NCBI GenBank assembly: GCA_937870635.1 | Contig: CALMZP010000084.1 | Coordinates: 5,335 to 69,334 of the forward strand | Source of the DNA: an uncultured Acidobacteriota bacterium | GTDB taxonomy: Bacteria > Acidobacteriota > Thermoanaerobaculia > Gp7-AA8 | DNA: 64,000 nucleotides | Direction of reading: 5' to 3' | Shown here: one piece after another, positions 1 to 64,000 of the stretch | How the letters are laid out: each line of letters starts with the position of its first letter | Numbering within the stretch: the first letter of the stretch is position 1 | Program-made: the position numbers and the translations under genes | Notes under the pieces: model-generated | The model's input: the letters and a program-made list of their open reading frames with translations, nothing else | What the model was told of the DNA's origin: nothing | Database searches by the model: none

Positions 1-252
1 GTCACCTGTGACCGACGGGATGCCCATGAACTCAACCGAGCGGTCGATGATCGGCTTGCAGAAGCCCGCGCCCAGGTGGGTGTCGCCACCATCGTTGCGG
101 TATAGCTGCCTAGCCAGATCGTAGTTGACGCGGGTTTTGTCATAGGCCGGGGCCGGGCCAAAGAACGAACCGCTGACAACCCGCCAGTTGTGGCGAAGGC
201 TGCTCGCCAACGGTGACAAAAACTCGCTGATCCATCCGGTGAATCGGCTCAT
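1..252 (-). CDS. portal protein, N-terminal part (runs off window)
   Basis: Hand translation MSRFTGWISEF...NYDLARQLYRND...GFCKPIIDRSVEFMGIPSV resembles SPP1-type portal N-termini. ATGA overlap with the upstream gene; directly follows the terminase genes. Confidence 0.7.
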   Translation of the reverse strand, partial: MSRFTGWISEFLSPLASSLRHNWRVVSGSFFGPAPAYDKTRVNYDLARQLYRNDGGDTHLGAGFCKPIIDRSVEFMGIPSVTGD

Positions 253-836
253 TCCGTACCTCTCGCTTCCGAGACGAGGGTTTCAAGCTCCGTGACCATC
301 GCAGCGACCTTCTGCTGCGTCTCGATGGGCAACCCTTCGAGCTTGCTCCAAAAGTCGTCACTCATGTCATGCTCGTTCTTCTTAGTGACAACCGATTCCG
401 ACTTGTTGACCTTTGCGATGCCGCCACGATCCAGGGCCGACTCGATTGCGCGCAGCTTCACGGACTCGTCTACGGCCGTGCGCGCGAGTTCAAGCAGCAT
501 CTCGATCAGGTCGATGTTGTGGCGCTTCAGGTGTTCGATTGCGCCGTCCGTAATGTCACCGGCGACCTTGGCACACATCTGTTGCCACGTCTCATCCTCT
601 GCCCACGCCTTGACAAGACTGCCCTGGATGTTGAGCGTGTCGGAGATGTACCGCCACGACCACCCTGCGGCTTTCAGCGTTGCCGAGTAAGCCTGTGCGT
701 AAGCAAGCTCGGCCGCTGTCAGTTCCGAGAGATCAGTGATCTTCTTCGACTTGCGCCTACTGAAAATCGCTGACCCGTGCTTGTTGCGCGGGCCGACGAC
801 TTCGAGGAGACGTTCTGCGTCTGTGCGCCTAGGCAT
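249..836 (-). CDS. terminase small subunit-like HTH protein
   Basis: HTH-like segment GWSWRYISDTLNIQGSLVKAW plus ESVKLRAIESALDRGG, a pattern common in TerS; lies between TerL and portal. Confidence 0.55.
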   Translation of the reverse strand: MPRRTDAERLLEVVGPRNKHGSAIFSRRKSKKITDLSELTAAELAYAQAYSATLKAAGWSWRYISDTLNIQGSLVKAWAEDETWQQMCAKVAGDITDGAIEHLKRHNIDLIEMLLELARTAVDESVKLRAIESALDRGGIAKVNKSESVVTKKNEHDMSDDFWSKLEGLPIETQQKVAAMVTELETLVSEARGTE

Positions 837-2541
837 GTGCGACTACGCTCCCTGAACGGTGAAAAAGATCACCGATGGATGCGGGGACAATCGTGTGCGG
901 CTTCTTCATCGTGGCGATCTCGCAGAACATGTCCGCGTGGTGCCAGTGATCCGGGTTCTTGTTTTTCATCCAGCGGCGGACGTTACGGCCCTTCGTGTCC
1001 TCCTCCTCCGTCGCCGCCATCTGACAAAGCTGGTACATGTAGCCGTTGTACGGAAGGCGCGGCATGTTCTCACCGATTGTCTCCACGTCCATCGGCATGA
1101 GCATCCGGCCCATCATCATCCGGTTGATGAACATGTCGAAGGCGTCGGTGCGGTCGATGTTGACCTTGCCGACCTCGCCAGGCTTGGGCGAATTGAAAAC
1201 GCCTGTCTCTGCCTGATCGGGGCGATCCTGCTCGAACCCGATCCAAACGCGCTTGTGATACTTCAGCGCGAGCCGCTTGGCCTCAGACTTTTCAGGGTGC
1301 GCATCGATGACGCAAGTGAAAGAGCCGAGTCCTGCAAGGAACTCGTCAAGCTGCTTCCACATGTCCTTCCCCGGCTTGTCAGCCATGATGCGCGCTTGCC
1401 AGAAAACTCGACGGTCGAAGCGGTCGAGATAGTCGGCGCGCACGTGAAGGACATTGCCGACATCGACGCCGACGTAGATGGCCCCTCCTGGGATGCCCCC
1501 CTGTGACAATCCCCCCTCGATGCACTTGCGGATCAGTTCGGGTGTGATCTGATCGCCGGCGCTGACAAACGGCTCGCCTCGGTTGTTGTTGAACCAGGCC
1601 CGCAGCTTCTTCGGTTGCGTCTGCCCGAGAAAGTAGTTGTCCATGAACCCGGCGATTGTCTGCGTGGGTGAGTGAAGCTGGTTGATGTGGTACCCACGCT
1701 TTCGACCACTCGGGTTGTCAGACTCCCACTGACCGAACTCGTTGGCCGCAGCCCGTTGGATGTCAGTGATCTCCTTCTTGCAGTACGCGCAGCGAACCTC
1801 GCACGCCTCGGCTGTATCTCCGATGGCGACGTTCTCCTCGACGGTGAATGTCTGCCTGCGTGAGCAATGCGGACAGGGCACGTACCACCTGTGCTGATCG
1901 CTCGCGTGCCAGGCATCCTCGGCGTCAACGCCGTGGCCTGGTGCGGTCGGAGTTGACAACTCCGTCTTGCGCTTGATGGCGGAGCCGTCGAGCCGCGCCA
2001 TCGCCTCGGGGATGTTGTCCTCGATCATCTTGTCACGCTCGTCCATGACAAGCACATCGGACGGAATCTCTCGAAGCTCCGTCCAGATGTTCGTCCCTCG
2101 GATGCGTAGCGCGATGTCATCGACCGTCTGCTTGTGAAGCCGGTTGTCAACCGACTTGAACATGTCAGACAATCCGGGGTTGGACGCGATGATCGGATCG
2201 ATCCGGCCCTGGACAAAGGGGATGGCTCCCGTTTTCAGCGGCATCAGGTACAGGTGATGCCAGCGCCTTTTCACGATCCAATGGAACGTCCTGACAAGGA
2301 AAATCGTTGTCAGGCCCATCTGAGCACCCTTGGGCACGATGATCCAGTCGGACTCGTCGCGGATGATGTCGCGCTGGAACTCGCGGCCCCGCATGTCAAA
2401 AGGATGTCCGTCTACTCTCAGCTTCAAGAGATCGGCCCAGGCATCCGGGTAGACGGCCGCGTTCGCGCGTGCCGAAAGACCCCCGCTGGTTGTGGCGGAA
2501 AGCCGCTTGGTTCCGTGGTTTTTCGCTGTTTTCCGGGCCAC
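829..2541 (-). CDS. terL: terminase large subunit, lambda GpA-like
   Basis: KGAQMGLTT (Walker A variant), LVMDERD (Walker B), STPT coupling motif, CPHC/CAYC zinc finger, GVDVG nuclease motif, C-terminal NPDHWHHAD. Confidence 0.92.
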   Translation of the reverse strand: MARKTAKNHGTKRLSATTSGGLSARANAAVYPDAWADLLKLRVDGHPFDMRGREFQRDIIRDESDWIIVPKGAQMGLTTIFLVRTFHWIVKRRWHHLYLMPLKTGAIPFVQGRIDPIIASNPGLSDMFKSVDNRLHKQTVDDIALRIRGTNIWTELREIPSDVLVMDERDKMIEDNIPEAMARLDGSAIKRKTELSTPTAPGHGVDAEDAWHASDQHRWYVPCPHCSRRQTFTVEENVAIGDTAEACEVRCAYCKKEITDIQRAAANEFGQWESDNPSGRKRGYHINQLHSPTQTIAGFMDNYFLGQTQPKKLRAWFNNNRGEPFVSAGDQITPELIRKCIEGGLSQGGIPGGAIYVGVDVGNVLHVRADYLDRFDRRVFWQARIMADKPGKDMWKQLDEFLAGLGSFTCVIDAHPEKSEAKRLALKYHKRVWIGFEQDRPDQAETGVFNSPKPGEVGKVNIDRTDAFDMFINRMMMGRMLMPMDVETIGENMPRLPYNGYMYQLCQMAATEEEDTKGRNVRRWMKNKNPDHWHHADMFCEIATMKKPHTIVPASIGDLFHRSGSVVAHA

Positions 2542-2615
2542 TGAAAAGGTACGGCGTTTGTGCCGTCGATGTCAGTGTACCCCGCCGCTGTCAGCCCAAA
2601 AAGAGAGGGCCGGGT

Positions 2616-2960
2616 TCAGAGATCGCGCCAGGACAGCCGAGCGCCACTTAGTTGCTCTTGTTTCGACACCAATCGATGACAATTTGCGCATAAGTTTTCA
2701 ATGCGCTTTGGCGCTCTATGACCATCGATCTGACAAGAATCAGACGCCTCAAACCCGCAGCACTCACAGACAAGCGATGCGCCCTGGCGGTGCGCGGCCT
2801 TCCCACCTGTCCCCCGGCCTTTCACGCACCCAAAACGCGGCTTGCCTGATCGGGTTGTCCCTTTGGCTCGAAGTCGAGTCGGCCCACAGACAGCGCAAGT
2901 CGCCGTTCGGGCCTCCACGTCAATGTCACTGAGCCGGTGCGATCCGTGTGTATAAGCCAT
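2616..2960 (-). CDS. HNH-type endonuclease (possibly degenerate)
   Basis: CECCG...QIDGHR...ENLCANCH; N-terminus (DVEARTATCAVCGP) is paralogous to the 38372-38821 ORF. Confidence 0.7.
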   Translation of the reverse strand: MAYTHGSHRLSDIDVEARTATCAVCGPTRLRAKGTTRSGKPRFGCVKGRGTGGKAAHRQGASLVCECCGFEASDSCQIDGHRAPKRIENLCANCHRLVSKQEQLSGARLSWRDL

Positions 2961-62935: not shown

Positions 62936-63429
62936 TAGACATCCGCAACTGCTGAATCGAGGAATTCGACAGGCAATGGGGTTTCCTGTGTGCCGTCGAG
63001 GGTGATGGCGTCGGTCGCAGCGAGGTAACGAGGCTGAAATCTGCGCTTCAACACGAACCGTAGGACATCTCGCAGCGTGAACGCGCCAAGGTCAGTACCG
63101 AGGTCAGCTTGCCATTCTGCGCGAGAATAGCCACACTCCTCAATCCAGTCGCGGAGATTTCGCTTCTGTGCGGTTGTCAGATTAGAAAGGGAATCGCCCA
63201 AGCTGCTTTTGGGTAGGCGACGAATCGTCGGGTCGGCCGCGATTGTCTGAAGGGTTGTTACAGACGCTCGCACCTTACAAACGTAGCGCCCACCAAGGCA
63301 CTCCTCGCCTGTCCAGTTGCCGCCGTCCTGACGGATGATGTTGTCATATTCGTTGATCGCACACCATCTCGACGGGTGGCCATTGAGCGCCACCCGTCGA
63401 TCCGGTGCAATGAACCATGCGACAGGCAT
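62935..63429 (-). CDS. hypothetical virion-associated protein
   Basis: Coupled ORF. Confidence 0.6.
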   Translation of the reverse strand: MPVAWFIAPDRRVALNGHPSRWCAINEYDNIIRQDGGNWTGEECLGGRYVCKVRASVTTLQTIAADPTIRRLPKSSLGDSLSNLTTAQKRNLRDWIEECGYSRAEWQADLGTDLGAFTLRDVLRFVLKRRFQPRYLAATDAITLDGTQETPLPVEFLDSAVADV

Positions 63430-63432
63430 TTG

Positions 63433-63927
63433 TCAGTGAAGCAGCGCGATTGTCGGCGTAACTTTGATCACGTCATTAGCGGCCAGCACCACGGCGAGGC
63501 CGTCATCGAAGTTCGCCTGCCCGATGACAACGGTGTGACCGTTGTTGGTGATGTAGAACCCGTTGACCGTCGAGCCTGTGGCACCGACTGTCGGGAATGT
63601 CACCTGCGGGTAGGTGGTCTGACGCCCTGCGTTCGTCGGCCGCTCTGCAACCGCTCCCCACGTCGCAGCGGCGAGAGCCTGACGCGCGTAGTTCGTGTAC
63701 GCCGACTCCGTGATGTTGGCGAACGTCTGCGCGTGCGTGATCACCGTTGTCGCTGTCTGCGAAGTGAAAAGCGCGAGGTTGAGCGGTGACGTGTATTTCA
63801 CCGTGTCCTTCGGGAACTGCCCGAGCCACACGTCGAGTCCTTCATCCGGCATCATCTGTGCCATGAAAACCGGATCGGACTCAAACGGCATGTAGTCCCG
63901 ATAGTGGATGTGACGCTCATGCAGCAT
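63433..63927 (-). CDS. virion structural protein (fibre-anchoring type)
   Basis: LALFT...ESAYTNYARQ...VTFPT...TVNGF pattern seen in phage structural proteins; GGAGG RBS. Confidence 0.65.
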   Translation of the reverse strand: MLHERHIHYRDYMPFESDPVFMAQMMPDEGLDVWLGQFPKDTVKYTSPLNLALFTSQTATTVITHAQTFANITESAYTNYARQALAAATWGAVAERPTNAGRQTTYPQVTFPTVGATGSTVNGFYITNNGHTVVIGQANFDDGLAVVLAANDVIKVTPTIALLH

Positions 63928-64000
63928 TGTCACTAGCCTCCATCCGGGCTGCACGCCGCTCGAAGGTGGCCTGCGCCTGACCAACGGCACCCTGCCACTC

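Follow-up and report, generated by a model that had tools for sequence, protein, structure and literature searches.

The 64,000-nucleotide stretch of metagenomic DNA analysed here (the window) belongs to a complete phage genome, and we found this genome to be saturated on both strands with the hexamer TGAMAA (TGACAA or TGAAAA, TTKTCA on the opposite strand). The copies are kept by selection and evenly spaced without regard to orientation, and arrays of the same kind pervade a clade of related phages, in which the word drifts in single-letter steps from lineage to lineage. We infer, tentatively and with somewhat less than even confidence, that the phage encodes a sequence-specific system for binding double-stranded DNA, that TGAMAA is the word recognised by this system, and that the phage's own chromosome is thereby marked or coated at intervals of about 120 bp. 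The likeliest reader would be a conserved winged-helix protein of 100 residues that resembles MerR and BldC.

The TGAMAA array and the selection on it

The array and the largest interruption in it are located as follows:

1-64000, both strands: TGAMAA/TTKTCA array, 538 hexamers, both orientations in random order
9789-10484, no strand: 695 bp without the motif, the largest such gap, within a stretch (about 8119-10371) that has no convincing gene

On the whole contig (C84), of which the window comprises bases 5335-69334, there are 593 copies of TGAMAA/TTKTCA (8.37/kb), and the 538 copies of the window consist of 145 TGACAA, 194 TTGTCA, 70 TGAAAA, and 129 TTTTCA. The zero-order expectation is about 30 per window, and the enrichment is thus about 18-fold and not roughly 25-fold, as the original prediction, made from the letters of the window, had estimated together with a GC content of about 64% (60.2% in reality); the hand counts given there were exact (8 in 1-1000, 8 in 1001-2000, and 10 in 44001-45000). 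By z-score, these four hexamers are the top four of all hexamers, at 15.9-18.8 times their composition expectation. The large bacterial contigs of the same assembly (4.5 Mb, 171 contigs) hold 0.24-0.45 sites/kb, which rules out host background as the source of the enrichment.

The word is asymmetric and 6 bp long. We found no longer hidden motif and no flanking context, as 7-mers and 8-mers are accounted for by the hexamers (ratios 0.88-1.27) and the 12 positions on each side hold at most 0.08 bit. Position 4 is A or C only, with TGAGAA at 0.5-fold and TGATAA at 0 copies, and single-letter changes of the word lie at 0.2- to 1.6-fold, the exceptions being TGACAT (5.7-fold on the contig) and TGTCAA (4.2-fold, partly a by-product of TTGTCAA). 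Two variants had been suspected to be frequent: TGACAT clearly is, and TGAAAT (14 copies, with 32 of ATTTCA 46 in the window) reaches roughly 4-fold by a hand estimate. Some near-variants are avoided rather than tolerated, because TGATAA is absent from the 70.8 kb of the contig (13 expected) and TAACAA is depleted (2 copies, 13 expected).

For the coding DNA, we used our own codon-usage calls, which comprise 100 open reading frames (ORFs) and cover 86% of the contig. They contain 495 TGAMAA sites (291 sense and 204 antisense), and these copies occupy all five frames that are open to a word containing TGA. When synonymous codons were shuffled within genes, a mean of 76.6 sites remained (49.4 sense and 27.2 antisense), and shuffles of the codon order left 41.7 (25 and 17); no shuffle among 200 of either kind rose above 64 sense and 40 antisense sites. 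The enrichment over codon shuffles is thus 6.5- to 12-fold. The original prediction had stated that an artefact would vanish under shuffles preserving codons or dicodons, but the enrichment persists (495 versus 77 or 42), and both types of shuffle rule out a codon or dicodon artefact. Furthermore, the density is 9.2/kb in non-coding and 8.1/kb in coding DNA. Because the word is used in five frames and both orientations, at nearly the same density inside and outside of genes, and far above its shuffled frequency, the array acts on DNA and not on protein or RNA.

The individual sites are conserved as well. The related phage G001 has 588 copies (9.2/kb), and its large terminase (TerL) is 83% and its DNA about 73% identical to that of C84, the latter over 44.6 kb. 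In the aligned blocks, 227 of 357 C84 sites (64%) face a site of G001, whereas 25.6% of all aligned hexamers are identical, or 30-32% at like A/T content. Individual sites are therefore under purifying selection, and about a third of them has been turned over at constant density.

The spacing of the sites is far from random. With a mean gap of 119 bp, the coefficient of variation (CV) of the gaps is 0.65, where a random process would give 1; the commonest gaps, of 60-100 bp, occur about twice as often as expected, and few exceed 300 bp. There are 44 gaps below 40 bp (169 expected) and 6 above 400 bp (20 expected), every 500-bp bin contains at least one site, and the counts have a variance-to-mean ratio of 0.33 per kb and 0.41 per 500 bp. 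Sites exclude each other within 40-60 bp regardless of orientation: in C84 and G001, the pair correlation is 0.11-0.13 below 20 bp and 0.19-0.44 at 20-40 bp, alike for ++, --, and +- pairs. The order of orientations is random (267 runs versus 285 +/- 12), and the per-strand gap CVs (0.90 and 0.85) are close to those of a random thinning of one regular process (0.87 and 0.80). Autocorrelation showed only the 3-bp coding signal and low-frequency terms, and no helical phase of 10-11 bp. Since the exclusion is orientation-blind, a duplex-bound protein or a duplex mark is to be expected, and not a reader of single strands, such as a primase or a Chi-type enzyme. Together with the shuffles, the conservation in G001, and the presence throughout the clade, this exclusion bears out the earlier proposal of a selected, non-polar, genome-wide mark.

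The stretch around the largest gap is peculiar in other respects. Neither strand of its approximately 2.2 kb (8119-10371) has a convincing gene, tRNAs and Rfam families are absent as well, and two of the five longest motif-free gaps (695 and 422 bp) lie here. The enclosing 6 kb (about 7366-13536) have no DNA similarity to the closest relative. We may be dealing with an origin, an early region, or recently acquired DNA.

The phage genome, its relatives, and the drift of the word

Contig C84 (70,839 bp, 60.3% GC) is a complete, circularly assembled phage genome, because an exact 20-bp overlap joins its two ends and because it is collinear with, and circularly permuted against, a 64-kb contig of IMG/VR. 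Nearly all of its genes lie on the minus strand. They code for a gpA-type large terminase, a capsid protein, baseplate J, a Mu gp48-like protein, and an NlpC/P60 tail protein, and also for PolIII alpha, DnaB, a superfamily 2 (SF2) helicase, RecA, a PD-(D/E)XK nuclease, a Toprim primase, an MT-A70 methyltransferase, a Holliday-junction resolvase-like protein, and two LAGLIDADG endonucleases; as we read the alignments, a gp32-like zinc single-stranded DNA-binding protein (SSB) and a RuvC-like nuclease are probably encoded as well. No tRNAs or Rfam families were found in the window.

We found no close relative among isolated phages: megablast gave no match, and tblastn of PolIII alpha and TerL gave at most about 32% identity among the matches listed. 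No relative was found among 185,579 species-representative genomes, and 20 host-related genomes contained only two weak TerL matches (24-25% identity). The matching sequencing runs were Logan contigs of soil metagenomes, with shares of up to 0.20, and the runs listed included none of RNA. With TerL, 332 database relatives were obtained at E <= 1e-20, many of them on contigs of 62-73 kb, and our sample of the clade consists of 74 IMG/VR loci with TerL identities of 44-83%.

Most of these 74 metagenomic loci are saturated with a short word, at roughly 6-10 sites/kb, but the word is not the same in all of them. In C84 and G001, TGACAA and TGAAAA dominate; in G002, TGAAAA is far commoner than TGACAA; G004 has TGAAAA and TGAAAT, and G007 a mixture. 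Most loci, including G003 and G006, use TGAAAT and GAAATT (with GGAATT and GTAATT), and TGCCAA(G) with TGACAA(G) is found in G005, L064, L068, L070, L074, L075, L174, and L175. A clear word is lacking in L014 and L071, and L010/G009 has at most a weak one. The words thus form a series in single-letter steps, as neighbouring lineages share one word of their pair. G005 is the most distant of the complete relatives, and 20 kb of it contain 131 copies of TGMCAAG (5.5 expected). Spacing in G005, L175, and L174 (the last is discussed below) was counted by eye from listings: 2 of 130 gaps are shorter than 40 bp in G005, where a Poisson process would give about 30, and 3 of 40 in L175.

The word has also been written into a homing endonuclease gene:

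59703-60212, minus strand: LAGLIDADG homing endonuclease gene, 8 motif copies in 510 bp (counted by eye)

This gene follows a conserved gene of the structural region (60164-60661, minus strand) and repeats its last ten residues, LRLVKTERPT, with the motif in opposite orientations in the two copies. That a duplicated LVKT peptide carries the motif in both orientations had been noticed before and is correct: the adjacent genes end in LRLVKTERPT by way of CTTGTCAAG near 60190 and GTGAAAACT near 59730. The insertion of the endonuclease seems to have left this repeat behind as a target-site or terminal duplication. A second, weaker LAGLIDADG match (35057-35497, minus strand; E 0.0019, below the Pfam cut-off) is flanked by the primase gene and by the small ORFs that lie upstream of DnaB. 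The 236-residue product of another gene (6601-7311, minus strand) contains a dual-specificity protein phosphatase domain (DSPc, E 7e-10), an unusual feature for a phage; most of the protein's length is shared with G002 only.

Candidate readers of the word

Gene content was compared by local tblastn with eight fetched relative records, seven of which are saturated with a motif array. The non-structural genes common to all seven saturated relatives encode the SF2 helicase, the RuvC-like and PD-(D/E)XK nucleases, the gp32-like SSB, the primase, DnaB, and a set of three further proteins, namely a 100-residue, a HIRAN-domain, and a 267-residue basic protein; RecA is kept in six of the seven. The three-gene set is located directly downstream of the helicase gene in every genome examined, and in L148 and L175 stop and start codons overlap or abut. 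The genes that need to be considered are:

17404-18816, minus strand: SF2 helicase (ResIII and Helicase_C), heads the conserved module and was the anchor for retrieving metagenome relatives, with 331 helicase-linked contigs
16369-16671, minus strand: MerR/excisionase (HTH_17)-type winged helix, 100 residues, candidate reader, in all seven saturated relatives
14734-15180, minus strand: HIRAN-domain protein, 148 residues, weak Pfam HIRAN match, always adjoins the winged-helix gene
13857-14660, minus strand: H1-like basic protein, 267 residues, possible coating partner
21568-22449, minus strand: MT-A70 adenine methyltransferase, accessory gene, in this phage only
34011-35060, minus strand: DnaG/Toprim-type primase, 349 residues, clade-conserved, rival reader
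32810-34036, minus strand: candidate T4 gp32-type zinc SSB, 408 residues, conserved H63, C73, C78, and C81, long acidic C-terminal half
32231-32719: protein without a supported family, present in three of the eight relative records

Among the shared non-structural proteins, we chose the winged-helix and the H1-like protein as the putative duplex binders; the SSB, the HIRAN protein, helicases, nucleases, and primase are DNA-binding as well. For the winged-helix protein, profile searches matched MerR-family domains in the PDB (E 0.002-0.9), and an AlphaFold2 model has the order alpha-alpha-wing-alpha, with pLDDT values of 87-90 over residues 31-90. The top rows of a Foldseek search with this model were all MerR-family DNA-binding domains, including the stand-alone RacA and BldC, and Pfam HTH_17 and MerR_1 each match five of the eight members of the winged-helix family (best E 1.5e-4). 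The protein has neither a coiled coil nor an effector domain, as its 100 residues end, in the model, in a helix (residues 77-89) and a disordered tail. This C-terminal tail, RPGRPRK, contains an AT-hook-like GRP, which is present in 10 of the 11 orthologs seen and broken in G005. In the 148-residue protein, we read a REPxNxxDxNA...GY motif from the alignment.

The 267-residue protein combines SAP/Rho_N-like N-terminal helices with a K/A/S-rich disordered linker of 70 residues, a central helical domain (residues 120-203), and a basic tail, and an Atlas search returned only hypothetical clusters, below 0.9. Its gene has the highest GC content at third codon positions (GC3) of the contig (0.93), and a motif-free gap of 329 bp (13847-14176) lies in its region; its K/A/S repeats, being of low complexity, may offer few places into which the word could fit. 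A high GC3 (0.88) is also seen in the gene of the putative 408-residue zinc SSB, a protein that matched nothing in Pfam and PHROGs and whose assignment is our reading of an alignment.

In the original prediction, one of the options had been a coating by HU-like, histone-like, or MerR proteins. Coating is the explanation that we also place first, but the product of 16369-16671 is a winged helix of the MerR/excisionase type and not an HU protein. The product of 13857-14660 is an H1-like basic protein, and that of 32231-32719 has no supported family and occurs in only three of the eight relative records. Two further options of the original prediction, a stoperator-like silencing site and a decoy, are conceivable; in its density and its lack of polarity, the array differs from stoperators.

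In the mechanism that we favour, the winged-helix protein would contact its site in a BldC-like manner, with the recognition helix on the TG end within the major groove, and with the wing and/or the GRP tail in the A/T-rich minor groove. The neighbouring H1-like protein would then spread from the bound site over some tens of base pairs, and each site would thereby serve a domain of roughly 50 bp on either side; that such spreading gives a domain size of 50-100 bp we purely infer. A second site within a domain would be redundant and decay, and a gap beyond about 200-300 bp would be refilled by selection, and the model would thus account for the even, orientation-blind spacing by domain redundancy and gap refilling. 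The drift of the word by single letters would follow from the co-evolution of the reader and its sites, and overlapping word pairs in single-letter steps would be the behaviour of a co-evolving protein-DNA interface. It may be that the coat serves to discriminate phage from host DNA, to shield the phage DNA from nucleases, or to compact it and time its expression.

Several observations weigh against this explanation. The link between protein and word is circumstantial, and small winged helices of the MerR/Xis type are common phage regulators, so that their conservation in the clade is unremarkable. The Foldseek matches have weak E values (0.04-0.3, at probabilities of 0.92-1.0), Pfam gives no match at E <= 1 for the winged-helix protein of the window, and no known fold clearly matches the H1-like protein's central domain (best Z 6.3). 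TGACAA and TGCCAAG are too poor in A/T for a classical AT-hook. We also considered that the AT-hook is lost where words are richer in GC: this fits G005 (TGCCAAG) but is contradicted by L174 and L175, which keep GRP with TGMCAA(G), and the presence of GRP does not track the A/T content of the word. Differences in wing and helix between motif classes (RLW versus RLY, ARH) follow phylogeny and prove nothing. L174 shows weak exclusion when its sites are defined by the hexamer (gaps below 40 bp make up about 22 of 91, with about 29 expected). Lastly, several small conserved proteins could alternatively be the true reader or a modifying enzyme.

A modification of bases would also leave a mark on the duplex. 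We regard it as unlikely that TGAMAA is the target of an unrecognised phage enzyme or of a host enzyme, with dense marks that protect or identify the phage DNA. Such a mark would likewise be orientation-blind, with a spacing driven by redundancy; lineage-specific, short, asymmetric words recall the variable specificities of Type III, IIG, and BREX-type methyltransferases; and C84 has an MT-A70 gene as well as many small conserved ORFs without an assigned function. However, an MT-A70 homolog was found neither in the eight relative records, which include the closest relative, nor in the 10 records of a separate genome search, and no methyltransferase, glycosyltransferase, base-exchange enzyme, or other modifying enzyme was recognised among the clade-conserved genes scanned. 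In addition, there is no obvious reason for an exclusion zone of 40-60 bp around a mark. As the seven saturated relative records have no MT-A70 homolog, this enzyme cannot explain a clade-wide trait, which rules it out as the writer or reader in the clade; the HIP1-like self-tag by MT-A70 that had been proposed is thus not the general mechanism, and the enzyme would be at most an add-on in C84.

The conserved replication genes suggest another reader. TTKTCA could be the template site of the phage DnaG-type primase, with a cryptic 3' A, pppG opposite C, and GAMAA as the primer. Having many sites on each strand would suit a recombination-dependent mode of replication in which forks run in both directions. 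Primase and DnaB are conserved in all seven saturated relatives, a T4-like recombination and replication set is present by our reading (RecA, gp32-like SSB, SF2 helicase, RuvC-like and PD-(D/E)XK nucleases), and all word variants keep the TG end and differ inside, like the primer-defining sites of T7/SP6-type primases. Nevertheless, we consider this improbable. A primase reads one strand, and sites on opposite strands should therefore not be mutually redundant, yet +- pairs are excluded almost as strongly; taken singly, neither strand is spaced more regularly than a randomly thinned joint array would be; and no need for priming is known that comes near a density of one site per 120 bp. The complete 68-kb genome G004 (loci L088-L091) has no tblastn match to the PolIII alpha or RecA of C84 but retains primase, DnaB, helicase, and the motif array, and its replication module may have been exchanged; in G007, the ORF with the primase homolog has 667 residues (L101:11667-13670, minus strand), about double the usual length, and may have arisen by fusion with an adjacent gene.

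The same orientation blindness speaks against a Chi-like signal for the phage SF2 helicase and PD-(D/E)XK nuclease, which would spare phage DNA, lead to the degradation of word-poor host DNA, and stimulate the loading of RecA. Signals of the Chi type are read on one strand and in one direction, whereas the array shows cross-strand exclusion, and its sense and antisense copies are both strongly enriched. Although helicase and nuclease are found in all seven saturated relatives and RecA in six, host DNA is 20-fold poorer in sites, and Chi words do vary between bacterial lineages, we think that this is very improbable.

We see an equally slight chance that the word binds a host protein, such as a nucleoid protein, region 4 of a sigma factor, or a defence sensor, and that the phage uses the sites as a sponge or decoy or to recruit the factor. 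Words differ between phage lineages whose hosts probably differ, and the TGAAAC/TGTAAC-type -35 boxes of extracytoplasmic function (ECF) sigma factors presumably resemble the word family. However, close relatives (TerL 72-83%) already differ in their dominant word, host contigs hold the words at about composition expectation (by a hand estimate), and a decoy has no need of even spacing.

Should the array be what it appears to be, the phage devotes about 5% of its bases (593 x 6 of 70,839) to a signal laid over the protein code, and this signal is strong enough to reshape the choice of codons, and even of amino acids, in all genes, with incoming homing endonuclease genes among them. The phage would then be a testable case of a virus that labels its whole chromosome by sequence alone, and its clade would offer a natural series of related reader/word pairs, in which the joint change of a specificity and hundreds of sites can be studied, and a set of small orthogonal binders of 6-7 bp of DNA. 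We can extend the explanation by a coating system to the whole clade, but only as a doubtful proposal: soil phages of about 62-73 kb would each write a private, lineage-specific word of 6-7 letters every 100-150 bp, a reader would build on it a viral chromatin that distinguishes self from the DNA of host or competitors, and word and reader would co-evolve stepwise (TGCCAAG, TGACAA, TGAAAA, TGAAAT, GAAATT) into mutually incompatible identity codes. Viral genome identity would here follow a new principle, without base modification. In metagenomic work, the word can serve as a simple signature by which members of the clade are binned and classified.

Comparison with known systems

In a full-text literature search, with incomplete coverage of subscription journals, we found no description of a phage genome that a hexamer saturates at even spacing, without regard to orientation, and in a form specific to the lineage. 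Among phage systems, the stoperators of cluster A mycobacteriophages are similar in that many asymmetric, phage-specific words are distributed over the genome, also inside genes, and are read by a phage-encoded helix-turn-helix protein. Stoperators are, however, 13 bp long, occur in a few dozen copies, point in the direction of transcription, and serve as binding sites for a temperate phage's immunity repressor. C84 instead has 593 copies of 6 bp, with a sense-to-antisense ratio of 291:204, a random order of orientations, and even spacing, and no repressor or integrase was identified in C84. Chi, KOPS (FtsK-orienting polar sequences), and DNA uptake sequences are selected, over-represented, genome-wide oligomers as well. 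Chi and KOPS are polar, whereas the array is non-polar and its cross-strand exclusion equals the exclusion on the same strand; uptake sequences reside in the host chromosome, and the array is confined to the phage contig (8.4/kb versus 0.24-0.45/kb in host contigs).

Abundant phage proteins that coat the phage genome and distinguish phage from host DNA are known in p6 of phi29 and TF1 of SPO1. The former reads DNA shape in a 24-bp repeat, the latter prefers hydroxymethyluracil DNA, and neither uses a hexamer written into the genome; in this respect the proposed coat of C84 differs from both, as it would rely on a defined hexamer written hundreds of times.

The candidate reader, with its MerR-like fold and without the coiled coil of MerR, resembles the BldC/Xis/RacA type, and the GRP tail is an addition. 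Known members of this type act at a few promoters or attachment sites, or, in the case of RacA, at about 25 centromere-like sites, and to our knowledge none has hundreds of evenly spaced sites. Gp36 of phage D29 is one of these stand-alone MerR-like winged helices (PMC12266134). Each protomer of BldC recognises an asymmetric site, AATTxxxx(C), by placing its wing into the AT-rich minor groove and contacting a G through an arginine from the major-groove side, and BldC multimerises and distorts the DNA (PMC5859096). This site logic fits words composed of TG and an A/T-rich part, and the AATT and GAATTTC sites of BldC resemble the words of most relatives.

The nearest known phenomenon is HIP1 (GCGATCGC) of the cyanobacteria. 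This word is described as 15- to 300-fold over-represented inside and between ORFs, with sites conserved between genomes and therefore kept by selection; no role in a peptide or RNA was found for it, and a role in chromosome or nucleoid structure was proposed (PMC5861425). TGAMAA is likewise hyper-abundant, occurs inside and between ORFs, is conserved at individual sites beyond background, and is kept by selection. HIP1 is, however, an 8-bp palindrome of cellular chromosomes, with about one copy per gene and a periodicity of 10-90 kb (PMC5861425). In contrast, the array described here is viral and consists of an asymmetric word of 6-7 letters at about 8/kb, with an exclusion zone of 40-60 bp, a drift in single-letter steps, and no conserved cognate methylase. 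The function of hyper-abundant words has been a problem since HIP1 raised it 25 years ago, and the phages bring to it a small system with a short list of candidate readers, which can be rebuilt from synthetic genes.

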